Assembly (NCBI GenBank): GCA_028707275.1
Contig: JAQTUP010000002.1
Span: forward strand, 59,198-123,197
Source: Gallionella sp.
GTDB lineage: Bacteria; Pseudomonadota; Gammaproteobacteria; Burkholderiales; Gallionellaceae
Length of the DNA: 64,000 nt
Reading direction: 5' to 3'
Position numbers and translations under genes: made by a program. Numbering within the stretch: position 1 is the first letter of the stretch; every line of letters starts with the position of its first letter. Below, piece by piece: positions 2,148 through 35,752 of the stretch. The notes below the pieces were generated by a model, which was not told where the DNA came from, made no database searches, and saw nothing but the letters and a program-made list of their open reading frames with translations.

Positions 2148-2157
2148 TCTCGCAATT

Positions 2158-2550
2158 TCAACGCAGAAGCGTATCTTCTATCTCATGCAGTAACAAAGGC
2201 AGTTCATTTTGGCAGTGTTTGAGGCAACCTGCCCGTTCACCGCCACAGCGCAACCCTATCGAGACACCTGTTTGCAACTTTTCCCACGCCTCGGGTGCGA
2301 TGTGTTTTCCGGCCTGCTGCCGGTTGCGCAGATAACGCGCATAGCGCGCCATGCTGCGAAAATAATGTTCCAGCCGGGGCAAGTGCACAGCACGCGCGCC
2401 GCCGAACAAGGTGTCAAATTCCTGGTGCAACTGATCCAGTTGCACGCGATCCAGCGGTACGCCGGATCGAACAATGGCGGCAGCCCGTTGCATGCGCTCA
2501 CAACAATCCTCACAAAAGGCCTGTGACAGAGCCTCAAAAATCTTATCCAT
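2158..2550 (-). CDS. Hypothetical Cys-rich 130-aa protein, translationally coupled to cheB
   Basis: The ORF overlaps the cheB start by 8 nt on the same strand. It has six Cys residues in CxxCC and CxxxxxxCxxxC spacing. No recognisable family. Confidence 0.5.
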   Translation of the reverse strand: MDKIFEALSQAFCEDCCERMQRAAAIVRSGVPLDRVQLDQLHQEFDTLFGGARAVHLPRLEHYFRSMARYARYLRNRQQAGKHIAPEAWEKLQTGVSIGLRCGGERAGCLKHCQNELPLLLHEIEDTLLR

Positions 2551-3619: not shown

Positions 3620-3641
3620 TTGCGCGCAAAACCAGTTGAGT

Positions 3642-5951: not shown

Positions 5952-5982
5952 GATTGCTCGTTTCAGTTATGGGTTAAGCTGC

Positions 5983-7518
5983 CTACAGTTTGTAAGTGCT
6001 GACGCTGTCGCGCAGCCGCTCGGCCACACGGCGCAGGTCTGCCGACGACTGCTTGCTTTGTTGCGCGGTGGTGACAAATTGCGCCGTCACTTTATTGATT
6101 TCTTTCATCGCCAGGGTCACCTGTTCGATGCCGATAAATTTTTGCCGCACTACAGCCGAAATTTGCTGGCTTGCGATGGCCGTTTCACGCACGACTTCAC
6201 CCAACTTGCGCACCACCTCCCCGCTTTTTTGCACCGACAGCATCCCGGCATCCACCCCTTTGCTGCCCTCTTCGGTGGCCATCACTGCGCGATCCGTTGC
6301 ATGCCGTATATCCTGGAGTATCTTTTGCACCTGAGCGGTCGATTGCTGCGATTGCTCCGCCAGCTCACGCACTTCGGCCGCGACGACGGCAAATCCCTTA
6401 CCTGCTTCGCCGGCTTTGGCAGCCTCAATGGAGGCATTGAGCGCCAGCATCTTGGATTGCTGGGCAAGGTTGGTCACGACAGCCGTAATTTCACCGATTT
6501 GCTGTGTCTGCTCGCTGAGCGCCAGTATGGTTTGCGCGATACCTTCGACGCGCTCGCGGATCGCTATCATACCCAAAATAGCCTGTTCTACCGCAACACT
6601 GCCTTGTTCGCTTTCGCGTCTGGCGCGTTCGGCCGACTCCCCTAACACCTGCATTTTCTCCATGGTCTGAGCCGACATGGCCTTGATTTCATCAAGCGAA
6701 GAAGTGGTTTCGTTGACCGCTGCCGCCTGTTCGGAAGCACCGGCCGACTGGCCGTTGATCGACTGCTGCAATTGCTCCAGCGTGCTGTAAATGGTATTGA
6801 TCGCCTCTGTCGTATCCGAGGCCACATGCGCCAGACTTTCTGTCATGCCATTGAGATTACTGCCCAGCTTTGCCAGATCGTCGCTGCCCACCACATCAAG
6901 CCTATGGCTCAAATCGCCCTCGGCCACGCTTGCAATGAAAGTCTGATAGGTCGCCAGTCTGGCCTCAATCTCATCTTTTGACATGCTGACCCCGTTCAGG
7001 TCAGTCATCAAACCATGTATATAGGTATCCATGGACAACTGGGAATCGATGGAGATGATCTTATGCAAGGCTTGCAAAGCCGCCTCCCGCGCACGGGCAT
7101 TCCACCGGTACTGGCGCTGGATCAACTTGACGATCTGGCAACTGTACACACTGTAACTGCCCAAATACCAGCGCGGAGTAAGACCAATTTTGTTGTGGAT
7201 CACACCGATTTTCAACCGCCGTTCAAAATAGGCGTCGCCATAATCTCCATCGAACATTTCCAGCAGATAGCGTTTCTGGGTCGTCTTGAGCCTGTCAATG
7301 TTTGAACCGGCCTCCCCGATGACATTCATCAGTTCGGTATATCGCTCGATATTGGCGTAAAAAGCATCGACAATGACGTCCGAATGCTGCTGGATAAAGG
7401 GACGCAAGGCTTTTAACGCTTGTATGTCCTGATCGCCAAAATCGACAAACTTCTTGCGCGAGGCCTGTTCGTTCGCATCAATACCCATCAACTGGGTCAG
7501 GGACTGGCTAAATTTCAT
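5983..7518 (-). CDS. Soluble globin-coupled methyl-accepting chemotaxis protein (HemAT-like heme-based sensor)
   Basis: It has no TM segments. The N-terminus is a sensor-globin fold (FYANIERYTEL..., LTPRWYLGSY). The C-terminus carries the highly conserved MCP signalling motif (LALNASIEAAKAGEAGKGFAVVAAEVRELAEQS). Confidence 0.85.
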   Translation of the reverse strand: MKFSQSLTQLMGIDANEQASRKKFVDFGDQDIQALKALRPFIQQHSDVIVDAFYANIERYTELMNVIGEAGSNIDRLKTTQKRYLLEMFDGDYGDAYFERRLKIGVIHNKIGLTPRWYLGSYSVYSCQIVKLIQRQYRWNARAREAALQALHKIISIDSQLSMDTYIHGLMTDLNGVSMSKDEIEARLATYQTFIASVAEGDLSHRLDVVGSDDLAKLGSNLNGMTESLAHVASDTTEAINTIYSTLEQLQQSINGQSAGASEQAAAVNETTSSLDEIKAMSAQTMEKMQVLGESAERARRESEQGSVAVEQAILGMIAIRERVEGIAQTILALSEQTQQIGEITAVVTNLAQQSKMLALNASIEAAKAGEAGKGFAVVAAEVRELAEQSQQSTAQVQKILQDIRHATDRAVMATEEGSKGVDAGMLSVQKSGEVVRKLGEVVRETAIASQQISAVVRQKFIGIEQVTLAMKEINKVTAQFVTTAQQSKQSSADLRRVAERLRDSVSTYKL

Positions 7519-7546
7519 GCAACTCTCCGGTTAATTTTCAGAAATT

Positions 7547-8206
7547 TCAAAGAACCTGACGCTGCACGCGCAACGCCGGATCATCCATCAATGCTGCCAG
7601 ATTTAACAGCGTGACGCAGGCGTTGTGAATACCGAGTACATATTCCATATTCGTCACCCCGTTCGACATGAGAGGCGCGGACACATCAGCCTCATGATAT
7701 TTTTCGTTACCATCCACAGCATCCACCAGCAGGCCTGCGCGCATCTGGCCGTGCTTGACCACGATAATGCGCGCATCAACCCCCGACGGAACCGCTGGCA
7801 TACGAAAAAATTGTTTCAGATCCAGTATCGTCAGCAATTCGCCACGATGATTGATCACCCCGGCCACAAATGCAGGCGTGCACGGCACACGGGCAAGATG
7901 CCCCACATAGAGTAACTCTTCCAAATAAGGATAGGGGATACCATAGCGTTCCGCCCCCAGGCGAAAACGCAGGTACTGGCCCCAGGCTTCGTGCTGTGGC
8001 CCGCTCACGGGCCTGGCAATCAACTCGGCACGCGCGGCCAGCATCTTCTGAGAGGCAGCATCCTGCGGCATCAGTGCCGCTGCAAATTGAACAGGAGCCA
8101 AAACAGAAGGGCCGGGCAGCGGCATATCCCCCGCAGGCGGCGGTTCTGAATCCGGCCTGATATCCCTGGCGCCATGCGGCGGATGTTTTTTTCTGATTTT
8201 CGCCAT
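7547..8206 (-). CDS. cheW: CheW-like coupling protein with a Pro-rich N-terminal extension
   Basis: The CheW domain is in the C-terminal 150 aa (GVINHRGELLTILDL...LLVDAV). The N-terminal ~60 aa are low-complexity and Pro-rich. Confidence 0.8.
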   Translation of the reverse strand: MAKIRKKHPPHGARDIRPDSEPPPAGDMPLPGPSVLAPVQFAAALMPQDAASQKMLAARAELIARPVSGPQHEAWGQYLRFRLGAERYGIPYPYLEELLYVGHLARVPCTPAFVAGVINHRGELLTILDLKQFFRMPAVPSGVDARIIVVKHGQMRAGLLVDAVDGNEKYHEADVSAPLMSNGVTNMEYVLGIHNACVTLLNLAALMDDPALRVQRQVL

Positions 8207-8230
8207 ATTTCCTGCCCGTGTTTCGAAAAA

Positions 8231-9739
8231 TTAACGTGAAGCTCCCCGCCTGCCACTGCGGGCACTGCGGGCACTGCGGGCACTGCCGAGCATGCTGATT
8301 TCATTTTGCAAAACCTGTGCGAAACGGCTATAAGTCATTCCGCCCGCGTTGTGCAGCTTGCGTTCCGGTTCTCCTGATTGTGCAAGCTTCAGCGCCGTCC
8401 CCAGGCTTTTGATGCCCTCTGTTAAATTGCCACTTCGCACTTTTAACATGCCGATTTCATAGTGCGCTTCGAGAAATGAGCGATCCAGATACAACGCGCG
8501 GCGCAGAGCATCCTCTGCCTCCTCGATATGATCGAGCTCTGAGAGAATCAGACTCTGAATCAGGTAAGCATGTTTGTTGCCAGGATCCAGTTGCAAGCTT
8601 CGAACACAAGCTCTTTGAGCCTCGTCCAGACGCCCGAGATTCGCCAGCGCGCGGGCGCTCATTTGCCATAGCTTGCTGTTTTCATCCCCTCTCTTGCAGG
8701 CGGCTTCGACCTGCACCAGCACCGCCGACCAGTCCGCGCGATCGAATAACTCGATCAGCTCATCCATCTGTTCATCGGATTGAACAGCGGCGCTATTTTC
8801 CACGGCCATCGTCGGCGCCGGATCCGGCTCTGAATCTGACGACAGCGCCGCATCCGGACACACTCTGGCCTGGTTCGCGGACGGCGCCCCCGGTGCAGAA
8901 GCTTTGTAAAAATAACCCGCAAAGTTCGTTTGCCGCAATTCAAGTGGCGTATGCATGTATTCGACTGGGTCTGACGCGCCCAGCATCAGCACGCCACCTT
9001 CGACAAGACACGATGCATATTGCGCCATACTGCGCCTGACGGCCTCGCGATCCAGATAGATAAACACGTTGCGGCACAGGATCAGATCCATCGCATTGGT
9101 CTGCCCCAGTATCGACGGATAAACATCTGCACTCAGATTAAGGTAAGCAAAATGCGCCATCTGCCTGATCTGGCTGTGAATTTCATATTTATTCCCCGCC
9201 GGAGTAAACCAGCGCTCGCGCACCGCCTGCGGTGTCGCGCGAAAGGACCAGTCCGAATAGCGCCCGCACATCGCGCGAGCCACGACTTCACTGTTGATGT
9301 CGGTTCCCAGCAAATGGATGCGCCACTGCACAATATCCGGAATAAGCTCCAGCAACAACAAGGCCATCGTGTAGAGCTCCTGCCCCTCCGAGCATCCGGC
9401 ACTCCAGACGCGCAATGACAAATTCCCACTTGCACGCTTTGCGTCTATCATCCGGGGCAGCAACGTCTCTCGCAGCAATTCGATCTGGCAGCTGTCGCGA
9501 AAAAAATAACTCTCGCCTACTGTCACCCCTGAAATCAAATATTGAAGAGGCTCGCTCCAATCAGCAGCGCGTTGAAGCTCATCCAGATAGTGCGCCGCGT
9601 TGCGATAAAAAAAATGTGCACATCCCTTGCGCAGCGTATCGCGCAGATTGGACAACTGATGATCTTGCAGGACGATACCGGTACGCCGCGCAATCAGCCG
9701 ACAAAATGCATCTTCAAGTTCGGCGGCAAGACTATCCAT
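8231..9739 (-). CDS. cheR: CheR-type MCP methyltransferase with a C-terminal TPR domain (WspC-like)
   Basis: CheR SAM-binding motifs (ESYFFRD, RVWSAGCSEGQE, LCRNVFIYL) are followed by TPR repeats. The C-terminal tail contains a 9-mer tandem repeat encoding ARSARSARS. Confidence 0.9.
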   Translation of the reverse strand: MDSLAAELEDAFCRLIARRTGIVLQDHQLSNLRDTLRKGCAHFFYRNAAHYLDELQRAADWSEPLQYLISGVTVGESYFFRDSCQIELLRETLLPRMIDAKRASGNLSLRVWSAGCSEGQELYTMALLLLELIPDIVQWRIHLLGTDINSEVVARAMCGRYSDWSFRATPQAVRERWFTPAGNKYEIHSQIRQMAHFAYLNLSADVYPSILGQTNAMDLILCRNVFIYLDREAVRRSMAQYASCLVEGGVLMLGASDPVEYMHTPLELRQTNFAGYFYKASAPGAPSANQARVCPDAALSSDSEPDPAPTMAVENSAAVQSDEQMDELIELFDRADWSAVLVQVEAACKRGDENSKLWQMSARALANLGRLDEAQRACVRSLQLDPGNKHAYLIQSLILSELDHIEEAEDALRRALYLDRSFLEAHYEIGMLKVRSGNLTEGIKSLGTALKLAQSGEPERKLHNAGGMTYSRFAQVLQNEISMLGSARSARSARSGRRGASR

Positions 9740-9763
9740 GCAGATACAGATATGTGTCGCCCA

Positions 9764-10231
9764 TCATTGCTCGGCGCCCTGATACAGCCCGGAATTGATC
9801 AGCCAGGCCGCATCGAGCAGGAATGCCAGCCCCGTATCCGTATGCGCACAGGCACGAAACGCCGCATCATGGCGTCCCAGTTCGCCGGTAAGCTGCAAGT
9901 CCGACTCTTGCAGCATCTGAATTCCTTTAATGTCCTGAACGATGACCCCCATGCGTTTTAGCCCGTGCATGCACACCACAATAGGCGTATCCAGCGTATA
10001 AGGTAATGACGGCAGACCCAGACGAATCGCAAGATCAATCACGGGCACACTGCTGCCCGCATAATTCATGATACCCGCCACATGCGGTGCACTGCCCGGC
10101 ATGACATGCAGCGCCACAAGCGAAATAGTGCGTTCCACATACCCCAGCTCAATGCAGGCCAGCATCCCCCCCATCTTCAACACCAACACCTGGCAGTTTC
10201 CCGACAAAACCTCGTCAATATCGGCTCTCAT
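9764..10231 (-). CDS. cheW: CheW coupling protein
   Basis: A 155-aa single-domain CheW (VAGIMNYAGSSVPVIDL...IVQDI). Confidence 0.85.
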   Translation of the reverse strand: MRADIDEVLSGNCQVLVLKMGGMLACIELGYVERTISLVALHVMPGSAPHVAGIMNYAGSSVPVIDLAIRLGLPSLPYTLDTPIVVCMHGLKRMGVIVQDIKGIQMLQESDLQLTGELGRHDAAFRACAHTDTGLAFLLDAAWLINSGLYQGAEQ

Positions 10232-10234
10232 GGC

Positions 10235-11311
10235 TTAGTCCTTCGCATACCATTCCATGACCCCGCAGCCCTGAATTTCTTCCAGAACATCGACACTGCG
10301 ATCCTGACTGACTCTCTCTGGCCGCAGCAAGGCTTCGGGACGCTCGCGTACAATAGACAGAAATATTGCCATCAAAGTTGGGTCCCAAAATCCGCTGGCC
10401 GTTTCCTGCTCCATGATCTGTATGACTTTATCTCGCGGGAACGCGGGTTTATAGGGGCGTTCACTGGACAGAGCGTCAAAAATATCGACAATCTGGAACA
10501 CGCGGGCGATCAGGGGGATTTCCTCGCCTGCCAGTCCTGCCGGATAGCCCGTGCCATTCCATTTTTCATGGTGGCATCGCACGATATCGGCCGTGCGTTG
10601 CATGGTACGCAACGGGCTGCACAGCGCCGCGCCTATCACCGTATGCTGCTTCATGATCTGCCATTCCGCAGCATCCAGCGCCCCCTTCTTGAGCAGGATA
10701 TTATCCGGAATACCCAGTTTCCCGATGTCGTGCAGAACCCCGCCGCGCCGCAAGGCATCGAGTTCTTCGGCACCCATCCCCAGCGCCCGGCCAAAGACTA
10801 CCCCGGTGTGAGCCAGGCGATCGCAATGGTCTCCGGTATTGGCATCGCGCGCCTCGACCATGCGCGCCAGCGCGAACAACACCGATTTGGCGTCGTCCAG
10901 CTGGTCGGTCAAACGCTTGCGCTCGATGGCGGCCCTGACTCTTGCTGTGAGCTCGATCGAATTGAATGGCTTGGTGACATAATCGTCCGCCCCCACATCC
11001 ATCCCCCTGACCACATCGTCGGGCGACCCCAAAGACGTCACCATGATGATGGGCAACAATTTCAGGCCGAGTTCCTCGCGGATACGGCGACAGGTTTCAA
11101 AGCCGTCAAGACCTGGCATGATGACATCGAGCAACACCAGATCAAAGGCTTCGTGGCGCAACATTTCCAACGCCTGCATCCCGTCGCAGGCCTCGACGAG
11201 ATGGTATTCCGGAGGTCTCAACACATAACCCAATAGCTTGCGGTTAGTCGCCATATCATCGACGGTGAGCACTTTAGAGCCAGTCAAGGCTGATTCCGAC
11301 ACCAAACTCAT
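10235..11311 (-). CDS. Response regulator with an HD-GYP domain (c-di-GMP phosphodiesterase)
   Basis: It has an N-terminal REC (VLTVDDMATNR...LDVIMPGLDG) and a C-terminal HD-GYP domain (HDIGK, HHEKWNGTGYP). Only 3 nt separate it from the downstream cheW. Confidence 0.85.
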   Translation of the reverse strand: MSLVSESALTGSKVLTVDDMATNRKLLGYVLRPPEYHLVEACDGMQALEMLRHEAFDLVLLDVIMPGLDGFETCRRIREELGLKLLPIIMVTSLGSPDDVVRGMDVGADDYVTKPFNSIELTARVRAAIERKRLTDQLDDAKSVLFALARMVEARDANTGDHCDRLAHTGVVFGRALGMGAEELDALRRGGVLHDIGKLGIPDNILLKKGALDAAEWQIMKQHTVIGAALCSPLRTMQRTADIVRCHHEKWNGTGYPAGLAGEEIPLIARVFQIVDIFDALSSERPYKPAFPRDKVIQIMEQETASGFWDPTLMAIFLSIVRERPEALLRPERVSQDRSVDVLEEIQGCGVMEWYAKD

Positions 11312-11331
11312 ACGACCCCTATCTTCCTTAA

Positions 11332-11452
11332 CCGATGTGACTGCGTCACATCAGTTATGTATTCAAATCAACTTCGCCGGGGGCAGCCCGGCTGCTGGCG
11401 ACTTTCTTTTGTGTCGCCAAAAGAAAGTCGCTAAAGAAAAGGCGCCCCCGGT
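11332..11452. repeat. Truncated copy (5' ~120 bp) of a ~380-bp MITE-like repeat family
   Basis: It shares the terminal palindrome (gatgtgactgcgtcacatcag), the core caaatcaacttcgccgggggcagcc and the hairpin cgactttcttttg-N6-caaaagaaagtcg with the copies at 40900, 52846 and 58093. Confidence 0.6.
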
Positions 11453-11544
11453 AAAAACCTTTTTTCATCCGCCCCGATCTCCGGCCGATGAACCAGTATG
11501 CGCCGACAGGCGGCCAAAACATCTGCCGCGCAGCTGAGCTCACT

Positions 11545-13209
11545 TTATGCAGGATAGCTGGCATCGGCGAGCACCACCTGATTGCGCCCTGCATGTTTGG
11601 CTTTATACAGCGCCATATCTGCCGCATCCGTCAATCTGGATGCATTGTCAAAATTTTTCATCTCGGCCAGGCCACAGCTGAAGCTGGCTGAAAATTCCTG
11701 GTCTTTTGCCAGGTGGCGCAGTTGTGAAAAGTCATGACGAATGGCGTCCATGACTTTCATCGCGGCAGCCCCATCGGCATCGATAAGAACCACGGCAAAT
11801 TCCTCCCCCCCGTAACGCCCGACCAAATCGTTCTCGCGCAGGCGCTGTTTTAGCAGCCTGGACAGGCTCTTTATCACGCGATCGCCCACCGGATGTCCGT
11901 AGCTGTCGTTGACCTTCTTGAAGTGATCGATATCCAGCATCGCGAAGGTGATGCTCCTGGCATGCCTTTTGGCCTGGGCGATTTGACCGACCAGCTGATC
12001 CTTGATGGCGATATGGTTGAGCAACCCGGTCAGACCGTCGCGCACCATGAAAGAACGCAGCAACAAGGAGCGTTTGATCCGGCTGTTAATGGACGAGACG
12101 AGCTGATGAGCCTCGATCGACTTGGTCAGGAAGTCGTCCGCCCCCAGAACGAGCGCTGCAAGCTGCTTGTCCAGATTGGTTTCGGAGGACAAAAATACGA
12201 TGGGGATGCTGACGAAGGCGTCAATTTGCCGGATGACTTTGGCCAACTCAAGCCCGCTGCATCCGGGCATATAAATATCCACCAGAATCAGGTCAGGAGA
12301 AAAATCCTGCAATGGTCGCATCACGTCAAGCGGGTCGTTCACCACCTTGACGGACATACCGGCATGTTCGAGCACGCGGGCGTGATAATTCGACAGATTC
12401 ACATCATCATCCACGATCAAAACTCTGGGAGCCGGTGCGACTGAAGCTGAGGTCAGTTCGTCGAGCTTGTCGACCAGAACACCCAGATTCACGGGTTTCA
12501 TCAGGTAGGCCACGCCGCCTGCCCTTACCGCTTCGAGCCTTACTTCCAGCTCGCTGTGCGACGAAAGGAAAATGACCTGCAGCGGCGTCTGCCGGTTGCG
12601 TTGCAATTCCGGCATGACATGCACCCCACCCAGAGGATCCTCGGGAAAGTTGATGTCCATCAACACCACGCCCCTGGAATCCTGTCGTATGGCACGGCGA
12701 AAATCCTCCAGCGTGTAAAACAGCTTCACGTCATATTCGAAATACTTCAGCTGCGTTTTGAGTTCCCAGGCGAGCTCGCGATCATGCTCCACGACGAAAA
12801 TGCGGCGAGTGTTGCGCGCTTTCGCACGAACAGCCTTGACCGGGATTAAATTAACCTGCGCAGAACCGGGCTTGTCAGGCTGATTTGCCGCCAGGCTCAC
12901 CCCTGCGAGCAGAAGGCTCACCTTGTCGCGCTGCACCGCATTCAACTCCGTTTTTGCCTGTCCCAGAAAATAAAGATAGTTTTCCAGTTCGCGCGCCGAA
13001 TCGCTGAGCGCAGAAAAGCCAAACGTCTTGCCAGACCCCGTCAGGCCGTGCACCAGACGGTGCAAATTCAAAAACTCATCCTGATCCCAGCCTATAATTG
13101 GAAACTGGCGCCAGGACTGTTCTATCTGTTTGATTTTTTCAGGCAACTGCCCGGCATATGCCTGGCTTAACAGCTTTAGCATGAGCTGAAGTTCATTGAC
13201 CTCAGACAT
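11545..13209 (-). CDS. Hpt-REC-REC-GGDEF diguanylate cyclase response regulator
   Basis: An N-terminal Hpt-like motif (LHRLVHGLTGSGKTFG) is followed by two receiver domains and a GGDEF domain (RYGGEEFAVVL). Confidence 0.8.
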   Translation of the reverse strand: MSEVNELQLMLKLLSQAYAGQLPEKIKQIEQSWRQFPIIGWDQDEFLNLHRLVHGLTGSGKTFGFSALSDSARELENYLYFLGQAKTELNAVQRDKVSLLLAGVSLAANQPDKPGSAQVNLIPVKAVRAKARNTRRIFVVEHDRELAWELKTQLKYFEYDVKLFYTLEDFRRAIRQDSRGVVLMDINFPEDPLGGVHVMPELQRNRQTPLQVIFLSSHSELEVRLEAVRAGGVAYLMKPVNLGVLVDKLDELTSASVAPAPRVLIVDDDVNLSNYHARVLEHAGMSVKVVNDPLDVMRPLQDFSPDLILVDIYMPGCSGLELAKVIRQIDAFVSIPIVFLSSETNLDKQLAALVLGADDFLTKSIEAHQLVSSINSRIKRSLLLRSFMVRDGLTGLLNHIAIKDQLVGQIAQAKRHARSITFAMLDIDHFKKVNDSYGHPVGDRVIKSLSRLLKQRLRENDLVGRYGGEEFAVVLIDADGAAAMKVMDAIRHDFSQLRHLAKDQEFSASFSCGLAEMKNFDNASRLTDAADMALYKAKHAGRNQVVLADASYPA

Positions 13210-13621
13210 GACGTCTTTCCCAGATGGTCTGAACCTGGCCGGACAAAGTCATCGGGTCGAATGGTTTCGGGATAACGTCCAGCGCACCCAGCGCCTTATA
13301 GCCTGCGACCTCGCCCGGCTGCACCTTGGCTGTCATGAAGATCACAGGGGTCGTCGCAAATTCCGGGATTTCGCGCAGGTGAGCCAGGGTCGTCGGGCCA
13401 TCCATGCCGGGCATCATCACATCCATCAATATGAGCTGGGGTTTGAATTCGGGCGCGCGTATCAGGGCATCCTTCCCGGAACTGCATATTTCCAGCGTGT
13501 ATCCACCGACCATTTCCAGCGCCAATCTTGCCACCACCTGGATATCCGGCTCATCCTCCACATACAGCACCCGCACCAATTTTTCCGTCATACCCCTCCC
13601 TTTTCGAAATTCCCGATGCAC
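13202..13621 (-). CDS. Single-domain response regulator (CheY-like receiver)
   Basis: A 139-aa REC domain (VLYVEDEPDIQ...MDVMMPGMDG...FMTAK). Its stop overlaps the start of the downstream GGDEF gene. Confidence 0.8.
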   Translation of the reverse strand: MHREFRKGRGMTEKLVRVLYVEDEPDIQVVARLALEMVGGYTLEICSSGKDALIRAPEFKPQLILMDVMMPGMDGPTTLAHLREIPEFATTPVIFMTAKVQPGEVAGYKALGALDVIPKPFDPMTLSGQVQTIWERRHV

Positions 13622-13692
13622 GCGGCATCATATGTGAAAACAGCCCGAAACTCCACGCACCCCTTATCGCCCGAAGCAGCACCCGCATTTTC

Positions 13693-15288
13693 TCATGCTT
13701 CGTCGGCACCGGCAGGGATAGGCTGTCGCCAGAGCGGAAACTCGACATAAAAAACAGTGAGCACATCGGGCTTGGAATCAAAGCCTATCTTCCCGCCCAT
13801 TTGTTCGACGATGGCGCGGGAGATGACCAGCCCAAGCCCCGTTCCGCCCTTCTTGCGCGTATCTGATGAATCAGCCTGAGAAAATTTTTGAAAAATCTGA
13901 CCGCGAAATTGCCCCGGTATGCCGCAGCCTTGATCAGATACAGAGATACGCACACGAGAGTCATCGGCGTTCACCGCCACGAGCACTTTCGCGCCTGCCG
14001 GGGAAAACTTGGCCGCATTGGAGAGCAGATTGGCCATCACCTGCAAAAACCGGTTGATATCCAAAAACAGCGTTACGTCAGATAAATCGCCTGCCAGCTC
14101 GTACGTGACCCCGAACTGTTGTGCATAGGCCATGTTGCCCTCCAGCGCCTGTTTCAACAAGGGAATCAAGCGGATGGTCTGCGGATGAAAATCCATCTTC
14201 CCCGCCTCTATCTTTTCCATATCGAGAATATCATTCACCAGCAAGATCAGGCGCTCGCAATTCTTGTAAGCGACATCGACCAGCGATTTTGCCTGAGGCG
14301 GCAACTCACCGGCGACCCCTCCTGCCATCAGGCCTAAGGATCCTCGTATCGAGGTCAAAGGAGTGCGCAATTCATGACTGACCGTCGAGATAAACTCGGC
14401 TTTCATACGCTCTATTTTGACGCGCCCGGTAATATCGCGAACGATCCTGGATGTGCCTGTAATCTTTCCATCTTCATCCAGAATAGGCGAAATACTGACC
14501 GAGACATCGACCAACTGCCCGCCTTTACTCAGGCGAACCGTTTCAAAATGTTCGATGCGTTCGCCGCGAAGAATGCGCGCAAGAATCCCTGATTCCTCAT
14601 TTTCACGACCTGGCGGGATGAGCATAGCCATCCGCTGGCCGACCGCTTCCTGTTTCGTGTATCCGAACAGAGCGACAGCGGCAGGATTCCAGGTGGTAAT
14701 GACGCCATCCAGCGTCTTGCTGATGATCGCATCCTCGGACGATGCGATGATTGAAACATAACGCGCCTGGAACAGGGCGTGTTCCGAGGCGCGCGCAAGC
14801 TGCCGCCCCCATTCGAGCTCTTCGCTCACGCATTGCGCCAGATCACGCAGCATGTTCAATTGTTCGGCGCTCACCTCGCGCGGCTGGTAATCTATCACGC
14901 ACAGCGTTCCTGCCCGCTGTCCTGTGCGCAGCGTCAGCGGATACCCGGCATAGAAGCGTATATGAGGCACACCACTCACCAGCGGATTGTCGGCAAAACG
15001 CGGATCGAGGGCGGCGTCAGGAATGAGAAAAACCCGGTCATCGAGTATGGCGTGACCACAAAAAGAGATATTGCGAGGGGTTTCAGACACTTCCAGCCCC
15101 TGACTGGATTTAAACCATTGCCGCTGACTGTCGATCAGCGAGACCAGCGCGACGGGTACGCCAAACAGATGCTGAGCCAGCCGGGTCAGGCGATCGAAAC
15201 GCTCTTCAGGTGGCGTATCGAGTATAGCCAGCGCGCGCAGCGCTGCGATACGATCTGCTTCATCAAATGGGTCGGGTGGCTCTAACAA
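13693..15288 (-). CDS. Cytoplasmic GAF-PAS sensor histidine kinase
   Basis: It has GAF and PAS domains, a HisKA H-box (STVSHELRTPLTSI) and HATPase_c (GTGLGLVISRAIVEQMGG). No TM segments. Confidence 0.85.
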   Translation of the reverse strand: MLEPPDPFDEADRIAALRALAILDTPPEERFDRLTRLAQHLFGVPVALVSLIDSQRQWFKSSQGLEVSETPRNISFCGHAILDDRVFLIPDAALDPRFADNPLVSGVPHIRFYAGYPLTLRTGQRAGTLCVIDYQPREVSAEQLNMLRDLAQCVSEELEWGRQLARASEHALFQARYVSIIASSEDAIISKTLDGVITTWNPAAVALFGYTKQEAVGQRMAMLIPPGRENEESGILARILRGERIEHFETVRLSKGGQLVDVSVSISPILDEDGKITGTSRIVRDITGRVKIERMKAEFISTVSHELRTPLTSIRGSLGLMAGGVAGELPPQAKSLVDVAYKNCERLILLVNDILDMEKIEAGKMDFHPQTIRLIPLLKQALEGNMAYAQQFGVTYELAGDLSDVTLFLDINRFLQVMANLLSNAAKFSPAGAKVLVAVNADDSRVRISVSDQGCGIPGQFRGQIFQKFSQADSSDTRKKGGTGLGLVISRAIVEQMGGKIGFDSKPDVLTVFYVEFPLWRQPIPAGADEA

Positions 15289-15346: not shown

Positions 15347-17278
15347 TCAATATTTCACCTCGTCCTTCCACATCTTTGCTTCAAAACGCACCACGCGGTT
15401 TCTCCCTGCCTCCTTGGCGTGATACATGGCAACATCGGCATATTTTACAGCCTGCCAGAAAGTATCACTGTCCAGCGGAAACTCTGAAATTCCAATGGAG
15501 ATAGTTTTTTGCAGCACTTCGCCGGGCAGCTGCACCTTCATTTTTTCAACGTCGGCGCGTATTTTTTCGGCCACTTTGTCGGTGGCCTCCCCTGTCGAGT
15601 CCTGCATAATCACGAGAAACTCCTCTCCACCATAACGTATCACAAGGTCAGCCGCGCGCACCGATGCCTGTATGGTTCTGGCCAGCGCCTTGAGAACCAG
15701 ATCCCCCGCGTCATGACCGTAGGTATCATTCACCATCTTGAAGTAATCAAGGTCGAGCATCAGCACCGAGAGCTGGCTCTTGCGACGCTGATTGGAAGCT
15801 ACCAGAGTTTCGGCGAATTCTTCCAGAAAACGGCGGTTGTGCAGACCTGTCATGGCATCGGTCAGATTGGAGGCGCGCAACGTATCCATCAGCCGCTTGG
15901 CCTCAATGACGGGTGCGGCTTCGCGCAAATAAACATTCAGATAGGGTAGAAATTCATGGATGCGTTCACCATCGTCCCGATGTGAGACCAGTTGCAGCAC
16001 GCTACCCACCATGCCCGACTGAATAATCGGAATACACACATGCACACGATCAGCCCCATCACGGTCAGATTGAAAGGCGTAACAGATTCCGGGCACGTTG
16101 ATCGAATCGATGATGTGCCCGGTGCGCCGGGCGCGACAACTTTCAGCATGAAGCAGAATTTGTGGGTCGCACCAGCGACAGGGGGCATCGATCTCGCCAT
16201 CTACCACCAGGGGCGCCATTCGACTGGTGCCCGTCACCATTTCATAGATCGAAAAATCATGGATAGCGAAGCGTTCCTGCAAAACCGATGACAGTCGCCG
16301 GTATATTTCCGGCTTGGTTTCATCCTCTTCGATCGCCTGCTTGAAATGCGCGGCCTCAATCAGTCCGGCGACGCGACTGATCGTGGAATTGAGCAAATTC
16401 TCATGCTCGTGTGTCGGCGTTTGCTGCAAAAGTTGTGCGACATCCTGGCTGATGGTTGTCAGTCCATTTTGAATGAATTTCAGCAGACTGTTCAAGTCCG
16501 CCGCAACCTGCCCTATTTCATCATCGGTACGTCGCTCGATATTGGCATGAAAATCCCCCTGAATGGCGCGTTCAACGGTCTCCTGCACATCGCGCGCGGT
16601 GACGATCACAGGTTTGACCAGCCGCCGGAAAAACCACAGCATCACCAGCATAAACGAAACGATTGCCAGCACCATGACAGACGAAGTCATGTAGGCACTG
16701 CGCATCATCTCGCTCATGGACATCGTAATCGTAATCACGCCCAGCACTGTCCCTTCCGCTACATTGTGGCATTGCAGGCAGTTGATATGTCCGGCACGAG
16801 TGGCAATATAGGGCAGCGTGCCGCGAAAGGCCAGTCCGTCGTTTTCGTCGATCAGTTTATAGTAAGCCTGTCCGTCCTGCATGACCTGCGCCTCAATTTT
16901 GTCCCTGATTTGAACTCGTTTCGAGTCCTTGCCAAACTGTGCGGCAACGCTGTCAGAGCGGATCACCCTGACTGTACGCATTCCTTCCACAGAGGCCAGA
17001 TGACCCAGAAAATCATCCCGATTTTCTGCAGAATTGTGCAGCATGGATTCACTAAGACTGATGCCGACAATATCGGCAATTGAACGGATATGCTCACGCT
17101 CGGTTGTAATGGTGAATTGGCGAAATGACAGAAAACTCACCACCACGACGACCACGATCATGGACAGGGTTATTACAATGGAAAAGGTCGTAACTTTGGT
17201 ATCGAGTTTCATTCTGGCAACCCTAAAAAGTCTTTTTGAATTAACTCTGACGTATTGTGACATAACAGATGGCTGCAT
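15347..17278 (-). CDS. Membrane sensor diguanylate cyclase with a periplasmic CxxCH (heme c) motif, HAMP, a Cys-rich cytoplasmic domain and GGDEF
   Basis: Two TM helices bracket a ~140-aa periplasmic domain containing CLQCH. The cytoplasmic part has HAMP and a GGDEF domain (RYGGEEFLVIM). The start codon is uncertain, and an internal Met at 17212 is possible. Confidence 0.8.
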   Translation of the reverse strand: MQPSVMSQYVRVNSKRLFRVARMKLDTKVTTFSIVITLSMIVVVVVVSFLSFRQFTITTEREHIRSIADIVGISLSESMLHNSAENRDDFLGHLASVEGMRTVRVIRSDSVAAQFGKDSKRVQIRDKIEAQVMQDGQAYYKLIDENDGLAFRGTLPYIATRAGHINCLQCHNVAEGTVLGVITITMSMSEMMRSAYMTSSVMVLAIVSFMLVMLWFFRRLVKPVIVTARDVQETVERAIQGDFHANIERRTDDEIGQVAADLNSLLKFIQNGLTTISQDVAQLLQQTPTHEHENLLNSTISRVAGLIEAAHFKQAIEEDETKPEIYRRLSSVLQERFAIHDFSIYEMVTGTSRMAPLVVDGEIDAPCRWCDPQILLHAESCRARRTGHIIDSINVPGICYAFQSDRDGADRVHVCIPIIQSGMVGSVLQLVSHRDDGERIHEFLPYLNVYLREAAPVIEAKRLMDTLRASNLTDAMTGLHNRRFLEEFAETLVASNQRRKSQLSVLMLDLDYFKMVNDTYGHDAGDLVLKALARTIQASVRAADLVIRYGGEEFLVIMQDSTGEATDKVAEKIRADVEKMKVQLPGEVLQKTISIGISEFPLDSDTFWQAVKYADVAMYHAKEAGRNRVVRFEAKMWKDEVKY

Positions 17279-17375: not shown

Positions 17376-18375
17376 TAAGCGGCCAATGCTCCCACATTGA
17401 ATTCGTTGGCGAAAGCTAAGAGCAGTCCACCAATTTTTAAGTGGACACTTTCATGGAATCATCTCATCCCATTCGCCGTCGTCGGCAACATGCGCCAAAA
17501 TTAACATCCGCTGGCCAGTCACTCAGGCTCACGCTTTTGGACAATGCCTGGCTGTGTGGCTCAAATGATTTGGCCGGAACAGGTATTTCTGTACATGGCG
17601 CCGGTGGACATGCGCTGGGGCATGGATCGCTTGTCGTTGCTGATTCAGCAGAGGATGGCCGTTCTCCCTGCGACGGCACGGCCCACGGCTTTACCAACCG
17701 CAACAACTCGCGCTTAAAACTGCTGATCTGGGATGGCACAGGTCTATGGTTGTGTCATCGCCGTCTGCATAAAGTGCGCTTTCGCTGGCCGATTCCCGGC
17801 GAAACTCTGTTCCGCATGAGCGCTGAACAATGGCGCTGGCTGATTGCCGGGGTGGACTGGCAGCGGCTGTGCGCGACGCCTATCTGCGCCGTATGCGCTA
17901 CGGAGTCAAGAGCGAAACGCTGAGTCCGGAGCAACGACAGCTGTTCGAAGACGATGTCATTCAGAATATCGCCGCCGTGGAAGCCGAGCTGCCCGCGACA
18001 CCGGCCAAGCCGAGAGCCCGCAGGCCGCCAGACTTTGCCCGAGTATCTGGAACGGGTTGAAGTGCGCCACGAACCGGATTGCTCAACCTGTCAGTCCGAT
18101 CTGGTCAAGATCGGCGAAGATGTCAGCGAACAGCTGGATATCGAACCGGCCAGATTCTTTGTGATTCGCCACATCCGCCCGCAATATGCCTGCCGCCAGT
18201 ACGAAACCGTGACGGCCGCGCCGGTGGCGCCCGCCACTCAAAGCCTGTTTGCCACCTCAAAACTCAACGGCATCGAGCCCGCCGCCTGGCTCAAAGATAC
18301 ACTGGAAAAACTCCCCGTTTGGACCATGCGGCGCATCGACGAGTCGCTGCCTCTCAAACCCGCCGCATAAACTGG
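17376..18375 (+). mobile_element. Degraded IS66-family element (left IR, TnpB fragment with frameshifts, internally deleted TnpC)
   Basis: A GTAAGCG-type terminal repeat lies at about 17376. There is a TnpB-like peptide (LLIWDGTGLWLCHRRLHKVRFRWP...AEQWRWLIAGVDWQRL). TnpC pieces (zinc-finger CxxC...RHIRPQYACRQYE and the C-terminal LFATSKLNGIEPAAWLKDTL) are fused by a deletion. Confidence 0.65.
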
Positions 18376-23094: not shown

Positions 23095-25170
23095 CTAAGT
23101 ATCTAGCTCAGCTGTTAACAAGCCAGTCAAAGTGTCCAATAAGTCTTTTGGCAACAATTTAGAATAATCAGCCAAGACCGTCTCGGCAACGTGTCGCATC
23201 AGATCGCCTGCGTGTTTGTTTTTTGGTTTTAAGAAACCGAACGCAGTGATAATGCTTCCCTCAAGTTCATGATCATCTTTATGCAAGTATTCTTTTGCTA
23301 CTTGCATAGTCATGCCATTGAGGTACTCCACCTCAATGGTTTCCCGAGGCAACTGCGCGGGGCCCAATATTAAATTCTGCAAAGCATCAATGGCCCGTTG
23401 CCATCGTTCATGATCCCAGTTAGATATTGACATGTAACTATCCTCTTGATCGAGAATACCTTTGTCTTTTGCAAAGGCCGCATTTTCCCCTGCAATCGTT
23501 ACGACTAGTAATACAGGATCAAATAGTAACGACTCAAGGCCATCTCGAACTCCCGGTGATAAAACGTGCATTCGGCCTTTTGTTGCGCGCTCTCCATCCC
23601 AGTCAACTAGACCGAGAACACTTTGATTTCCTCCGGTAGATAGACCATCAACTAGTCTCATGACTTGTGCGCATCCAGCGTTCTTTTCGCCGCCAGATTC
23701 ATCTGTATTACCCACTTCCACGAAAACCAGCGAACGTTCTGAATTCAAGTGCGCCTTATAGCGCTGAAAAAGCAAGTCGTAGAGATTTGCATCTGTACGA
23801 CTTTCCACAAATATTTGACGTCTTCCATCAAAAGCAATAGAAAGAGTCGGCACGCCAACAGTAAGAAGTGAAAGCGCTAAGCTCTTGCTAACTTTGTCAA
23901 TTCGTGGACCGACAGGGTTCATCGAATAAATTGCTTCCTCAGGTGCGAGCGCTACGGTTGAAGGGCTATGGGTCGTAAGAATGACTGAAACGTTCTTGTC
24001 GCGAACGAGAACATTTTGAATGGTATTTAGCAAAGAAGCCGTCATGGATGGATGCAAGGGCGCATCTACTTCATCAAGTAGCAACAGTTTTGGAAACTCC
24101 TTTGCCTGACGACTGTCCTGTGAGTTGTAAAGACACAAAGCAAACGACATGAGAACTTTTTCACCAGAAGAAAGATCTTGAAATCGCATCTCTACAGTTG
24201 TGGAAAGCTTGTAGAGTTTAGGCTCATACGAGGCGATTTCGTGAAGTGGTGGGTAATCGACTCTAAAATCAAGGCGACATTCTTCTAAGATCTGATTTAC
24301 GAAATCCCAAGGCGGGGAGCCATACTCGGAAACAAACTCTTCTTGAGATAAATATCGCCTTGTAGGTTCCTCCGGTGGGGGATATTTTTGTAATCTGTCA
24401 TTATCGTGGATCAACTCACGATACCTAGTGAAAACGCGGCCAAAAGCTTGTTGAAATGGATCAACACCGCCCCAAAGCAAATTTTTATCTTGAAAAAAAG
24501 TGGACTGTGAAGAAACCAGAAAGGTCTCAGGCGAATACTGTTGAATTTTAGGCACTGCTTTACGCCAATGTTCATCGCCAATTTGATTAAAGGAGTTGCT
24601 ACCTACATTTGAGCCAGCCTGCTTAATATTCTGCTTGATGGAAGCTTCCACTTGCTCCGCTTTTGCGGGATCTGCCAAGACTCCACGCAATACCTCTACA
24701 GTTAGTGAATTAATTTTCTGGATATTAGAACAGTATTCGGCAGGAACTCCTTGATTAAGAGCATGCTGTTTGATGCCCGGCAACTGCTGTTCACGGTGAG
24801 TTTGCATAGTTGTAAACCATTGTGATCGCCTCGATTGATCTTTAGCGGGATCAAAGATGCCGGTATCTGTAGGAATGATTGACGCTGAGTCGAAAAGGCG
24901 AACATCAACGTTTAAATTGTTTGCAAGCGACGACCTTACCTGCCCCCCTTTTATCGCCGTTAGTAAGTGAGTTTTGCCAGATCCATTTCGCCCCGTCAGT
25001 ACTACAAACTTGGGCAAAGTGATCTCCTCCAGTTGCGTTATTGATTTATGAACCGATGCAAAAGTAAGTGTGTTTGACATAGTCTTAAGTTGTGCAAATC
25101 TTTCGTCTTGGAGTTTCAATATACCGGAAGGTATGGAGTAGTGCAGACCTCTGGCATGACAGTTTCCCAA
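23095..25170 (-). CDS. OLD-family ATP-dependent endonuclease (ABC-type ATPase plus C-terminal Toprim), class 1 stand-alone
   Basis: It has Walker A (LTGRNGSGKTHLL), an ABC signature-like LSSGEKVLMSFAL, Walker B (LLLLDEVDAPLH), and C-terminal Toprim-like E (IFVESRTD) and DxD (LVDWDGE) motifs. GC is about 45%, against ~60% in the flanks. An alternative start lies at 25080. Confidence 0.7.
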   Translation of the reverse strand: MGNCHARGLHYSIPSGILKLQDERFAQLKTMSNTLTFASVHKSITQLEEITLPKFVVLTGRNGSGKTHLLTAIKGGQVRSSLANNLNVDVRLFDSASIIPTDTGIFDPAKDQSRRSQWFTTMQTHREQQLPGIKQHALNQGVPAEYCSNIQKINSLTVEVLRGVLADPAKAEQVEASIKQNIKQAGSNVGSNSFNQIGDEHWRKAVPKIQQYSPETFLVSSQSTFFQDKNLLWGGVDPFQQAFGRVFTRYRELIHDNDRLQKYPPPEEPTRRYLSQEEFVSEYGSPPWDFVNQILEECRLDFRVDYPPLHEIASYEPKLYKLSTTVEMRFQDLSSGEKVLMSFALCLYNSQDSRQAKEFPKLLLLDEVDAPLHPSMTASLLNTIQNVLVRDKNVSVILTTHSPSTVALAPEEAIYSMNPVGPRIDKVSKSLALSLLTVGVPTLSIAFDGRRQIFVESRTDANLYDLLFQRYKAHLNSERSLVFVEVGNTDESGGEKNAGCAQVMRLVDGLSTGGNQSVLGLVDWDGERATKGRMHVLSPGVRDGLESLLFDPVLLVVTIAGENAAFAKDKGILDQEDSYMSISNWDHERWQRAIDALQNLILGPAQLPRETIEVEYLNGMTMQVAKEYLHKDDHELEGSIITAFGFLKPKNKHAGDLMRHVAETVLADYSKLLPKDLLDTLTGLLTAELDT

Positions 25171-35363: not shown

Positions 35364-35659
35364 GACAGGCTGATCCCAGACTTTTTTTTGAGCCAGTCCA
35401 GTTCCACCTTCAGTTTGCCAATCTCGCTGTACAGCAATTCTGGTTCCTTATACGCGGCCACCGGTTTGGGGCCGCGCTTGCCTTCAAACAGCGTCTTGGC
35501 CTGATCCTGGATCTCCTTCTTCCACAAACCTACTTGCGCCGGATGAACGCCGTACTCCAGACCAATCTGATTGACCGTCTTCGTTCCTCGAATTGCTTCA
35601 AGACCCACCTTCGCCTTAAGTTCCGGCGTGTGGAACTGCCGCTGCTTTGATTCGCTCAT
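35360..35659 (-). CDS. IS3-family transposase OrfA (HTH)
   Basis: A 99-aa protein with an HTH and a leucine-zipper tail (KLKVELDWLKKK). Its end is at the frameshift site. Confidence 0.8.
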   Translation of the reverse strand: MSESKQRQFHTPELKAKVGLEAIRGTKTVNQIGLEYGVHPAQVGLWKKEIQDQAKTLFEGKRGPKPVAAYKEPELLYSEIGKLKVELDWLKKKSGISLS

Positions 35660-35752
35660 TTTGCTTATTCCCTATGAACAGCGCACAGCTTAAACCATTG
35701 TCTTAAAAACTGGGGCCACTATAGGCTCATGCGATCCCCAAGGTCAGCAACA

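Follow-up and report, generated by a model that had tools for sequence, protein, structure and literature searches.

A gene on the minus strand of this Gallionella sp. DNA encodes what we take, at a probability of roughly 70%, to be a dimeric membrane diguanylate cyclase with two sensory inputs: a periplasmic Cache domain carrying heme c and a cytoplasmic GAF domain with four conserved cysteines. The stretch analyzed, here called the window, is 64,000 nucleotides long, and its coordinates are used throughout. The heme-c sensor is of a known type, and the four-Cys GAF module is the new part of the architecture. As a heme-c Cache sensor cyclase, the protein probably responds to redox state or NO. 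By computation we show its topology and folds, its homology, the conservation of its motifs, and catalytic and I-sites that are intact.

RESULTS

Gene start, topology and catalytic domain

The minus strand carries an ORF of 643 aa at 15347-17278. The first-pass annotation had called this ORF a membrane diguanylate cyclase, a description that we retain with the strand now given as minus and the start corrected. A 621-aa protein of a Gallionella sp. MAG (P0001) is 100% identical to the ORF product, and all 30 aligned homologs have MKL or MNL as their N terminus; the likely start is therefore Met23 of the ORF. Judged from these alignments, translation probably begins at window position 17212 and gives a product of 621 aa, with the 22 ORF codons before it probably untranslated. 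Unless noted otherwise, residue numbers below are those of the full ORF.

15347..17212, minus strand: diguanylate cyclase CDS, 621 aa, from Met23 of the ORF to the stop (the full ORF reaches 17278)

The order of elements in the protein is TM1, a periplasmic domain, TM2, a HAMP-like segment, a Cys-rich module and the GGDEF domain.

17123..17194, minus strand: TM1 (VTTFSIVITLSMIVVVVVVSFLSF), Kyte-Doolittle windows up to 2.9
16700..17122, minus strand: periplasmic single-Cache domain, 141 aa, heme c predicted
16628..16696, minus strand: TM2 (AYMTSSVMVLAIVSFMLVMLWFF), followed by RR..K on the cytoplasmic side (hydropathy, translation)
16463..16627, minus strand: HAMP-like linker (weak Pfam HAMP match)
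15863..16429, minus strand: Cys-rich GAF-fold module with flanking helices, 189 aa (AF2 model, Foldseek)
15395..15862, minus strand: GGDEF diguanylate cyclase domain (Pfam PF00990, TIGR00254)

Hydropathy analysis gave exactly two strong TM segments, at residues ~29-52 and ~195-217, the first of which is an uncleaved signal-anchor helix. The loop between them must be periplasmic because the GGDEF domain requires cytoplasmic GTP. A periplasmic domain of ~140 aa between two TM helices had been proposed in the first-pass annotation, and by hydropathy the domain measures 141 residues. Topology had been set beforehand as the possible refutation of that proposal; hydropathy and the side on which GGDEF lies place the CxxCH segment outside the cytoplasm. 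Directly after TM2, the Pfam HAMP model matches residues 235-266 with 17.8 bits, below its cut-off of 25. PF00672 is recorded for many homologs of the cyclase and for 35/73 members of the wider family described below.

The GGDEF domain spans residues 473-628 and was recognized by both PF00990 (E 1.3e-47) and TIGR00254 (E 6e-54).

15617..15631, minus strand: GGEEF active-site motif, invariant in 30 homologs
15647..15658, minus strand: RAAD, the RxxD I-site (ORF 541-544), five residues upstream of GGEEF

Both the R and the D of RAAD are invariant in the 30 homologs, as are the DxLD/N/D/K/R positions in the GGDEF domain of the homologs. These intact motifs predict a catalytically competent domain with an inhibitory site.

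A periplasmic Cache domain predicted to carry heme c

The first-pass annotation had drawn attention to a single CLQCH in the periplasmic loop. Indeed, this is the only CxxCH in the protein, where 0.002 would be expected by chance from the protein's own composition.

16766..16780, minus strand: CLQCH heme-c attachment motif (ORF 167-171; Cys167, Cys170 and proximal His171, predicted)

Lack of conservation in orthologs had been named beforehand as the second possible refutation, and it was not seen. The motif is kept in 30/30 aligned orthologs, in 79/80 genome loci (a contig end truncates the one exception) and in 139 of 147 distant representatives, where seven of the eight exceptions are fragments. 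In those 79 loci, GGEEF follows CxxCH at a constant distance of 381-386 residues. In the structure model, the third strand (99-109, model numbering) comes before CLQCH and the fourth (129-138) after it, and a short helix occupies 118-120; the CxxCH of sCache_heme proteins is likewise placed between the third and fourth strands (PMC12889525).

As modeled, the periplasmic domain has a single-Cache fold. Its best PDB match in Foldseek is the heme-c sensor GSU0935 (3B42, E 1.4e-5), with TM-scores that are modest (0.45-0.54), a probable consequence of the helix-swapped dimer seen in the crystal. The sequence comparisons point the same way. Against the PDB, a broad family profile that includes the cyclase sequence (A5) matched 3B42 (E 7e-6) and 3B47 (GSU0582, E 1e-3) over the full domain, and it placed the family CxxCH on the CxxCH of both. 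This broader profile was needed for detection: searched against the PDB, A2 and A3, which cover the close family, yielded nothing beyond noise and local CxxCH matches to cytochromes c3, and a single-sequence phmmer search of the PDB with residues 24-463 returned nothing significant. When the profile built from diguanylate cyclases only (A2) was compared with the GSU0935 sequence by hhalign, the match had an E of 2.4e-4 over 113 columns and a probability of just 43%. Both A5 and A2 align CLQCH to the CQSCH of GSU0935. Identity between the cyclase periplasmic domain and the Geobacter sensors is only ~16-21%.

Pfam and NCBIfam scans of the cyclase gave GGDEF and the weak HAMP match alone, covering neither sensory module, and in the Pfam scan PF21563 and PF11845 had no match to the cyclase sequence at E<=1. 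Relatives retrieved by A2 at E ~1e-24 reach PF21563 (Mcp40H-20_sensor; P0301, 29 bits, cut-off 27), and PF11845 matches in MCP relatives are weak and sub-threshold (E 0.012-0.077). A relationship to sCache_heme is supported transitively by these comparisons, with the cyclase itself scoring below formal membership in PF21563 or PF11845. The likeness to Geobacter heme-"PAS" chemoreceptors had been put forward earlier as an analogy; the top Foldseek match, the A5 and A2 profiles and the alignment to Met60 of GSU0935 (see below) support homology beyond analogy.

The diversity of the periplasmic domain family was taken from an exhaustive HMM search, which gave ~870 clusters (869 representatives) at 50% identity; word-indexed profile searches with A2 and A3 added no new architecture, only fragments from within the family. 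Among 73 family members the outputs are MCP (35/73), GGDEF (28/73) and HD-GYP (8/73), a modularity typical of a sensor domain.

It could be argued that the CxxCH binds no heme and that the Cache domain instead holds a small molecule, a metal ion (e.g., Fe(II) or Cu via Cys/His) or a redox-active disulfide. We regard this as very improbable. CxxCH is the strictly conserved core of the ~870-cluster family and aligns residue for residue with the attachment site of two crystallized heme-c sensors. Moreover, the candidate distal Met is co-conserved, and the local sequence context resembles class III cytochrome heme sites. Cytochrome-c maturation genes were sought within the 64-kb window and none was found; Gallionellaceae mature many c-type cytochromes.

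A candidate distal ligand and the nature of the signal

17042..17044, minus strand: Met79 (Met57 in 621-aa numbering), helix alpha1, candidate distal axial heme ligand

In the broad family, at least 90% of members conserve the Met79 position, with Met in 129-131 of 133 representatives, and in the A5 and A2 profiles it aligns with Met60 of GSU0935. In GSU0935, Met60 is the distal heme ligand, and in the Geobacter heme-c sensors spin state and heme ligand change with redox state (PMC8396549). Such a redox-linked switch speaks against the domain being a dedicated NO sensor rather than a redox-state sensor, one in which NO made by denitrification or by the abiotic reaction of Fe(II) with nitrite binds the ferrous heme and switches the cyclase. 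The case for NO draws on the P. azotoformans protein, the only signaling-type sCache_heme characterized so far, which binds NO (koff ~6e-4 per second) without giving a stable O2 complex (PMC12889525), and whose downstream signaling is enhanced by NO (bioRxiv 10.64898/2026.05.25.727664). However, that protein has no protein-derived sixth ligand, whereas in the cyclase family the Met corresponding to GSU0935 Met60 is retained.

Genomic context likewise cuts both ways. A cyclase homolog in Noviherbaspirillum is adjoined by narGHJI, and a gene for a cd1-type nitrite reductase lies near another homolog, in a Gallionella, which would suit an NO sensor; yet denitrification neighbors were present in only 2/5 contexts examined. 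On balance we consider a dedicated NO sensor somewhat unlikely. The NO and redox readings are not exclusive, and by analogy with the P. azotoformans protein the signal of the cyclase may be NO instead of, or besides, redox potential.

A search for a conserved gene neighborhood found different neighbors in every genome examined, and the adjacent kinase gene is not conserved even among close Gallionella relatives. We therefore rejected gene neighborhood as functional evidence; because it is not conserved, it offers no consistent clue to the signal. A promoter and terminator scan around the cyclase gene stayed at background level and did not settle co-transcription with the kinase gene 58 bp downstream.

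A cytoplasmic GAF-fold module with four conserved cysteines

The five cytoplasmic cysteines that the first-pass annotation had listed between HAMP and GGDEF are all present.

16034..16180, minus strand: Cys segment CRWC-x10-C-x17-C-x15-C, candidate metal or Fe-S site (C367, C370, C381, C399, C415; also H388, H413)

These five and both histidines are invariant in 30 homologs down to 53% identity. In relatives at 20-30% identity C370, C381, C399 and C415 are kept, and C367, H388 and H413 are not.

The AF2 model of the module has a pLDDT of 74, falling below 50 in the Cys loop. GAF domains lead its Foldseek matches in the PDB and make up the majority of the top 50, among them 3OOV (E 5.6e-5), Lcd1, PDE6 and NifA. 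On the strength of this model, we assign the Cys-rich module a GAF fold. The Pfam models GAF, GAF_2 and GAF_3 gave no match to the cyclase sequence, a weak GAF_2 match (E 0.009) appeared in only 2/26 family members, and hhalign of the module against the GAF domain of the neighboring histidine kinase was not significant. Literature searches found no description of a four-Cys GAF module and no Fe-S GAF domain in a diguanylate cyclase.

The architecture of the cyclase family is almost invariant and occurs in at least 345 species-level genomes. Its hosts include the culturable Magnetospirillum, Dechloromonas, Azonexus and Azovibrio as well as the iron oxidizers Gallionella and Sideroxydans.

Possible cofactors of the module are an Fe-S cluster or Zn. 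Covalent heme in a cytoplasmic GAF domain, of the MsmS type, was also considered and set aside, nothing in the data pointing to such a heme. Four conserved cysteines are equally typical of Zn sites, which are usually built from paired CxxC knuckles. The module might then be no sensor at all: a structural Zn(Cys)4 site or disulfides would serve only to hold together a rigid coiled-coil/GAF linker between HAMP and GGDEF, leaving a single, periplasmic input. The long helices that flank the GAF fold, in line between HAMP and GGDEF, fit this idea, and the fixed CxxCH-GGEEF spacing of 381-386 residues would suit a mechanical transmission element. Against Zn, there is a single CxxC pair, whose first Cys is lost in distant relatives. 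As modeled, moreover, the cysteines sit in the segment that lines the ligand pocket of canonical GAF domains, one of them on the penultimate strand. MCP-output relatives, which are without the Cys-GAF module, have 0-1 cytoplasmic Cys, and GAF domains that hold iron or an Fe-S center are known (NorR; CSK/Hik2). A purely structural role is, in our estimate, the less probable one, and we prefer to read the module as a second sensory input.

A more specific version of the two-input reading is that the heme-c Cache, HAMP and four-Cys GAF cassette acts as a two-compartment redox integrator, in which heme c reads the periplasm and an Fe-S cluster held in the GAF pocket by C370, C381, C399 and C415 reads the cytoplasm. 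This we offer only tentatively.

DISCUSSION

Proposed mechanism

In the model that we propose, the gene product would be a diguanylate cyclase that forms dimers in the inner membrane and takes in two sensory inputs. The parts of this model that we infer are the attachment of heme, its ligation by Met, what the signal is (periplasmic redox poise and/or NO), the GAF cofactor and the sign of regulation. The first input would be the periplasmic single-Cache domain of the GSU0582/GSU0935 type. By homology, the cytochrome-c maturation system would join one heme c to Cys167 and Cys170, with His171 as proximal ligand and Met79, on the N-terminal helix, as a labile distal ligand. If the domain behaves like the Geobacter proteins, oxidation would release Met and leave a high-spin, water-bound heme, and reduction would let Met rebind and return the heme to low spin; NO could displace Met from oxidized and reduced heme alike, and CO could do so from reduced heme. 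Such an exchange of ligands would shift the helix running on from TM1 together with the strand that enters TM2, and the movement would pass through TM2 and HAMP to the second input and on to the catalytic domain. The second input would be the cytoplasmic GAF-fold domain, with its four conserved cysteines in the pocket region; it most likely holds a metal or Fe-S center and would let the enzyme respond to redox state, O2, NO or iron in the cytoplasm as well. The combined signal would set the alignment of the two GGDEF domains, and with it the rate of c-di-GMP synthesis, and the RxxD I-site would provide product inhibition.

Significance

To our knowledge, periplasmic heme-c Cache sensors have been recognized as a widespread class only recently, with studies confined to chemoreceptors and HAMP-only members; a literature search for an experimentally studied heme-c cyclase found none. 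The cyclase family ties a predicted heme-c Cache sensor directly to synthesis of the biofilm signal c-di-GMP, and whether cells at oxic-anoxic interfaces stay motile or become attached or stalked may hinge on such sensors. Because Pfam models cover neither sensory module, routine annotation says only "GGDEF domain protein."

A new cofactor-binding class of GAF domain has a well-defined candidate in the four-Cys module, and the idea is directly testable since cultured hosts exist. If the cassette did prove to be a two-compartment integrator, its GAF domain would represent a new Fe-S class and the enzyme would be the first known cyclase to pair heme c with an Fe-S center; the cassette would gate c-di-GMP synthesis in microaerophilic iron and sulfur oxidizers, denitrifiers and magnetotactic bacteria.

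Comparison with known systems

The closest known systems are GSU0935 and GSU0582 (3B42, 3B47; PF21563). Like the cyclase, they have the sensor between two TM helices with HAMP (a HAMP-like segment in the cyclase) after TM2, and a single-Cache ("PAS-like") fold with one CxxCH late in the domain. In contrast, their output is an MCP domain, whereas the cyclase leads to GGDEF via the extra Cys-GAF domain, stays below the PF21563 threshold and belongs to a large separate subfamily (869 clusters). The PF11845 proteins (sCache_heme/DUF3365/Tll0287-like; Tll0287 is 5B82) differ in the sixth heme ligand, which is Cys in Tll0287, none or water in P. azotoformans and, by prediction, Met here. The accessible portions of the Deshpande et al. 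2026 preprints on sCache_heme make no mention of the Cys-GAF module.

On the cytoplasmic side, NorR, CSK/Hik2 and DosS/DosT share with the cyclase a GAF fold upstream of a signaling output, the metal or cofactor role being predicted in our case. The NorR GAF domain is an NO sensor with a mononuclear non-heme Fe bound by Asp, Cys and Arg; that of CSK/Hik2 senses quinone-pool redox through a [3Fe-4S] cluster, CSK having a single identified Cys ligand; and that of DosS/DosT binds heme b. No sequence similarity to these iron-center GAF domains was detected in the cyclase, which has its own C-x10-C-x17-C-x15-C set.

DcrA of Desulfovibrio vulgaris is a membrane transducer with a periplasmic CxxCH c-type heme that reports redox state or O2. 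Its output is MCP, and the likeness to the cyclase drawn here, as in the first-pass annotation, is one of function. Heme ligand or redox state also controls GGDEF in DosC/DgcO, in BpeGReg and in the H-NOX- or NosP-associated cyclases. In all of these the heme is a non-covalent, cytoplasmic heme b, and H-NOX and NosP are usually separate proteins. The cyclase described here differs from these cytoplasmic heme cyclases in that its heme is predicted to be a covalent heme c, located in the periplasm and carried on the same polypeptide as GGDEF.

Gene, start and topology

The cyclase ORF (window 15347..17278, minus strand) encodes 643 aa; a 621-aa protein annotated "diguanylate cyclase" in a metagenome-assembled Gallionella sp. 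genome matches it at 100% identity. Because every aligned homologue begins at a Met matching ORF residue 23, the true start is most likely Met23, at window position 17212; residue numbers here are those of the ORF, and subtracting 22 gives the 621-aa numbering. Pfam identifies a GGDEF domain (residues 473-628, E 1.3e-47); HAMP (235-266) scores below threshold, residues 53-193 and ~284-472 have no match, and NCBIfam returned nothing beyond GGDEF-type models. Hydropathy marks just two segments as strongly hydrophobic, residues 29-52 and 195-217. Since HAMP and GGDEF must be cytoplasmic, the 141-residue segment between these TM helices lies in the periplasm. It contains the sole CxxCH of the protein, CLQCH (residues 167-171, window 16766-16780), a motif expected from composition alone 0.002 times per cyclase protein. 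The first-pass annotation had proposed a heme-c motif between two TM helices and five Cys in a cytoplasmic module. Indeed, hydropathy and the position of HAMP and GGDEF after TM2 place CLQCH outside the cytoplasm, and the only other Cys residues are the five listed, C367, C370, C381, C399 and C415. Of the two outcomes named in that annotation as refuting it, a cytoplasmic CxxCH and a motif not conserved in orthologues, neither was seen when checked, and the observation stands.

Conservation and catalytic domain

Residues 23-471 are matched by >1,000 clusters at 90% identity. Among the 120 matches listed, length is almost always ~620 aa, and the sources are Gallionellaceae, Sideroxyarcus, Noviherbaspirillum, Endothiovibrio and unnamed proteobacterial MAGs. 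In 30 homologues, down to 53% identity, no variation is seen in the CxxCH, the five cytoplasmic Cys, W369, H388, H413, GGEEF or the RxxD I-site. When one genome per GTDB species was scanned, 345 genomes encoded the Cys-rich module, with hosts including Gallionella, Sideroxydans, Sulfuricella, Azonexus, Dechloromonas, Azovibrio, Rhodoferax, Magnetospirillum and other Rhodospirillaceae. CxxCH lies in the same reading frame as the module, with GGEEF a fixed 381-386 residues after it, in 79 of the 80 best genome loci; the remaining one is truncated by a contig end. Also invariant in the GGDEF domain are conserved Asp, Asn, Lys and Arg positions, and the I-site is RAAD, five residues upstream of GGEEF. 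Judged by these residues, the cyclase should be active and under product inhibition.

The periplasmic domain as a probable heme-Cache sensor

From 26 family sequences, AlphaFold2 models the periplasmic domain (pLDDT 78) as four strands with two helices at the N-terminus and one at the C-terminus; CxxCH falls between the third and fourth strands, with a short helix alongside. The top Foldseek PDB match of this model is the heme-c sensor of the Geobacter chemoreceptor GSU0935 (3B42, E 1.4e-5), followed by the Cache domains of WalK and CitA. A broad-family profile (A5; 32 sequences including the window cyclase) finds 3B42 (E 7e-6) and the GSU0582 sensor 3B47 (E 1e-3), in alignments that span the whole domain and pair CxxCH with CxxCH; a profile of cyclase members only gives the same register against the GSU0935 sequence (hhalign E 2.4e-4, 113 columns, probability 43%). 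The domain and the heme sensors of the Geobacter chemoreceptors are homologues, a kinship that the first-pass annotation had drawn by analogy. The overall reading, a periplasmic heme-c Cache sensor with predicted heme attachment, coupled to a diguanylate cyclase, is supported.

An exhaustive HMM search with the periplasmic-domain profile returned 869 representative clusters at E<=1e-3. CxxCH is at the same position in 139 of the 147 top representatives, and seven of the other eight are fragments. The outputs fused to the domain are varied (n=73: MCP 35, GGDEF 28, HD-GYP 8, PAS-GGDEF-EAL 2), which makes it a modular sensor. At E<=0.01, PF11845 matched no member of the 73; two match it weakly. 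Several MCP-output members match PF21563 (Mcp40H-20_sensor) over its full length; one relative, P0301, scores 29 bits, above the gathering score of 27.

Two 2026 preprints define "sCache_heme" as DUF3365/Tll0287 plus GSU0582 and GSU0935 (PMC12889525; bioRxiv 10.64898/2026.05.25.727664), Cache domains in which a CxxCH segment of cytochrome origin is inserted between beta3 and beta4 (PMC12889525). They mention that the domain is fused to histidine kinases, MCPs and GGDEF/EAL enzymes, and they show a HAMP-linked P. azotoformans sCache_heme to be a sensor of NO, not O2 (PMC12889525; bioRxiv 10.64898/2026.05.25.727664). This kind of protein is therefore known. The literature searched yielded no heme-c diguanylate cyclase studied by experiment, and the present family is large, uniform and not annotated as a heme-c Cache cyclase.

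Predicted heme ligands and candidate signals

Across the broad family, only R, P, C, C, H, G and G are invariant. A Met in helix alpha1 (motif L-T/S-x-x-M; Met79 in the cyclase) is at least 90% conserved, the strict pattern matching 129/133 representatives and two more having it in a variant context. Both profile alignments pair this Met with GSU0935 chain residue 26, which is Met60 because the heme Cys at chain position 106 is the published Cys140 (offset 34). In GSU0935, Met60 is the axial ligand on the distal side of the heme; oxidised heme in the Geobacter domains is high-spin, reduced heme is low-spin because Met60 binds, and NO (either redox state) and CO (reduced form) each displace Met60 (PMC8396549). 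Because Met79 matches Met60, and given the known behaviour of GSU0935, the cyclase heme would by homology be ligated by His171/Met79 and follow the same ligand switch. Redox poise and/or NO are candidate readings of the physiological signal.

Genomic neighbourhood

The cyclase heads a run of minus-strand signalling genes; the cluster at window 2543-15288 lies directly downstream:

13693-15288, minus: GAF-PAS histidine kinase
13202-13621, minus: stand-alone receiver (REC), overlapping the next gene by 8 nt
11545-13209, minus: Hpt-REC-REC-GGDEF
10235-11311, minus: REC-HD-GYP
between REC-HD-GYP and protoglobin-MCP, minus: CheW, CheR-TPR and a second CheW (gene order)
5983-7518, minus: protoglobin-MCP
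3642-5951, minus: CheA-CheW-REC
2543-3619, minus: CheB

This cluster is similar to a Wsp-like chemosensory pathway in which the receptor is globin-coupled and the outputs act through c-di-GMP. The cyclase neighbourhood is not conserved in the other genomes examined, close Gallionella relatives included, and the cyclase is best regarded as a one-component system complete in itself. The 64-kb window contains no genes for cytochrome-c maturation. In Noviherbaspirillum sp. UKPF54 (locus 1-9863) the orthologue is ~450 bp downstream of narGHJI and a PpiC-type rotamase, and in a Gallionella MAG (locus 1-9869) a cd1-type nitrite reductase and a COX1-family gene lie ~5.5 kb upstream of it. Denitrification genes beside these two homologues are a hint, not proof, of NO or nitrogen oxides as signal and of a link to nitrogen-oxide respiration.

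IS66-family remnants occupy window 17441-18370 (plus strand), just upstream of the cyclase: a TnpB-like ORF (17441-17923, plus) and a 138-aa ORF joining the IS66 zinc finger to the IS66 C-terminal element with no DDE core, a truncated transposase. Elsewhere, an IS3-type integrase (34341-35363) adjoins a GmrSD-type restriction endonuclease (35753-37600) at a low-GC patch (36-38 kb, GC 0.41 vs ~0.55 elsewhere), and 34341-37600 is probably a small defence islet gained by horizontal transfer. A 691-aa AAA_21/AAA_15/SMC_N ATPase (OLD/AbiEii-like; 23095-25170, minus), in a region of lower GC (0.48-0.52), is a possible defence-related gene. Divergent genes for the sigma-54 activator RtcR (27880-29475, minus) and the RNA ligase RtcB (29683-30909, plus) form an RNA-repair module. 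A 398-aa ORF (56478-57674, plus) with the unusual pairing of an N-terminal Peptidase_M48 match (residues 67-147) and a C-terminal Pilin match (296-393) could be a genuine fusion, or else two genes read as one.

A four-Cys GAF module

The Cys-rich module of the cyclase has no Pfam match, and a weak GAF_2 match appears in 2 of 26 members. Its model (pLDDT 74) has helices and strands in a GAF arrangement, and GAF domains make up the leading Foldseek PDB matches and the majority of the top 50. In canonical GAF domains, the segment running from the second strand to the final two lines the ligand pocket. In the cyclase this segment is ~50 residues long, is modelled at low confidence (pLDDT <50) and carries C367, C370, C381 and C399; C415 is placed on the penultimate strand. 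GGDEF relatives at 20-30% identity keep C370, C381 (C-R-A-x-R-T), C399 and C415 (C-I/F/L-P) and lose C367, H388 and H413. The four retained Cys give C-x10-C-x17-C-x15-C as the conserved set.

The module is coupled to GGDEF and, once, to a SpoIIE/PP2C phosphatase: P0240 (724 aa) joins the heme-Cache, HAMP and Cys-GAF cassette to this phosphatase instead of GGDEF. Another relative, P0313 (625 aa), has a second CxxCH (CRVCH) where the cytoplasmic GAF module normally has the conserved CRARRTGH. MCP-output relatives are without the Cys-GAF module and have 0-1 cytoplasmic Cys.

An Fe-S cluster is a possible, if doubtful, cofactor, and no Fe-S GAF domain in a cyclase was found in the literature searched. 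A structural Zn or disulfide site would be an equally tentative assignment, and the remaining probability falls to a site of other or unassigned nature. Whichever applies, the four-Cys GAF domain is an extra, undescribed module. It differs from the GAF domains of NorR (mononuclear Fe), CSK/Hik2 ([3Fe-4S]) and DosS/DosT (heme b), which are all without the four-Cys motif of the cyclase.
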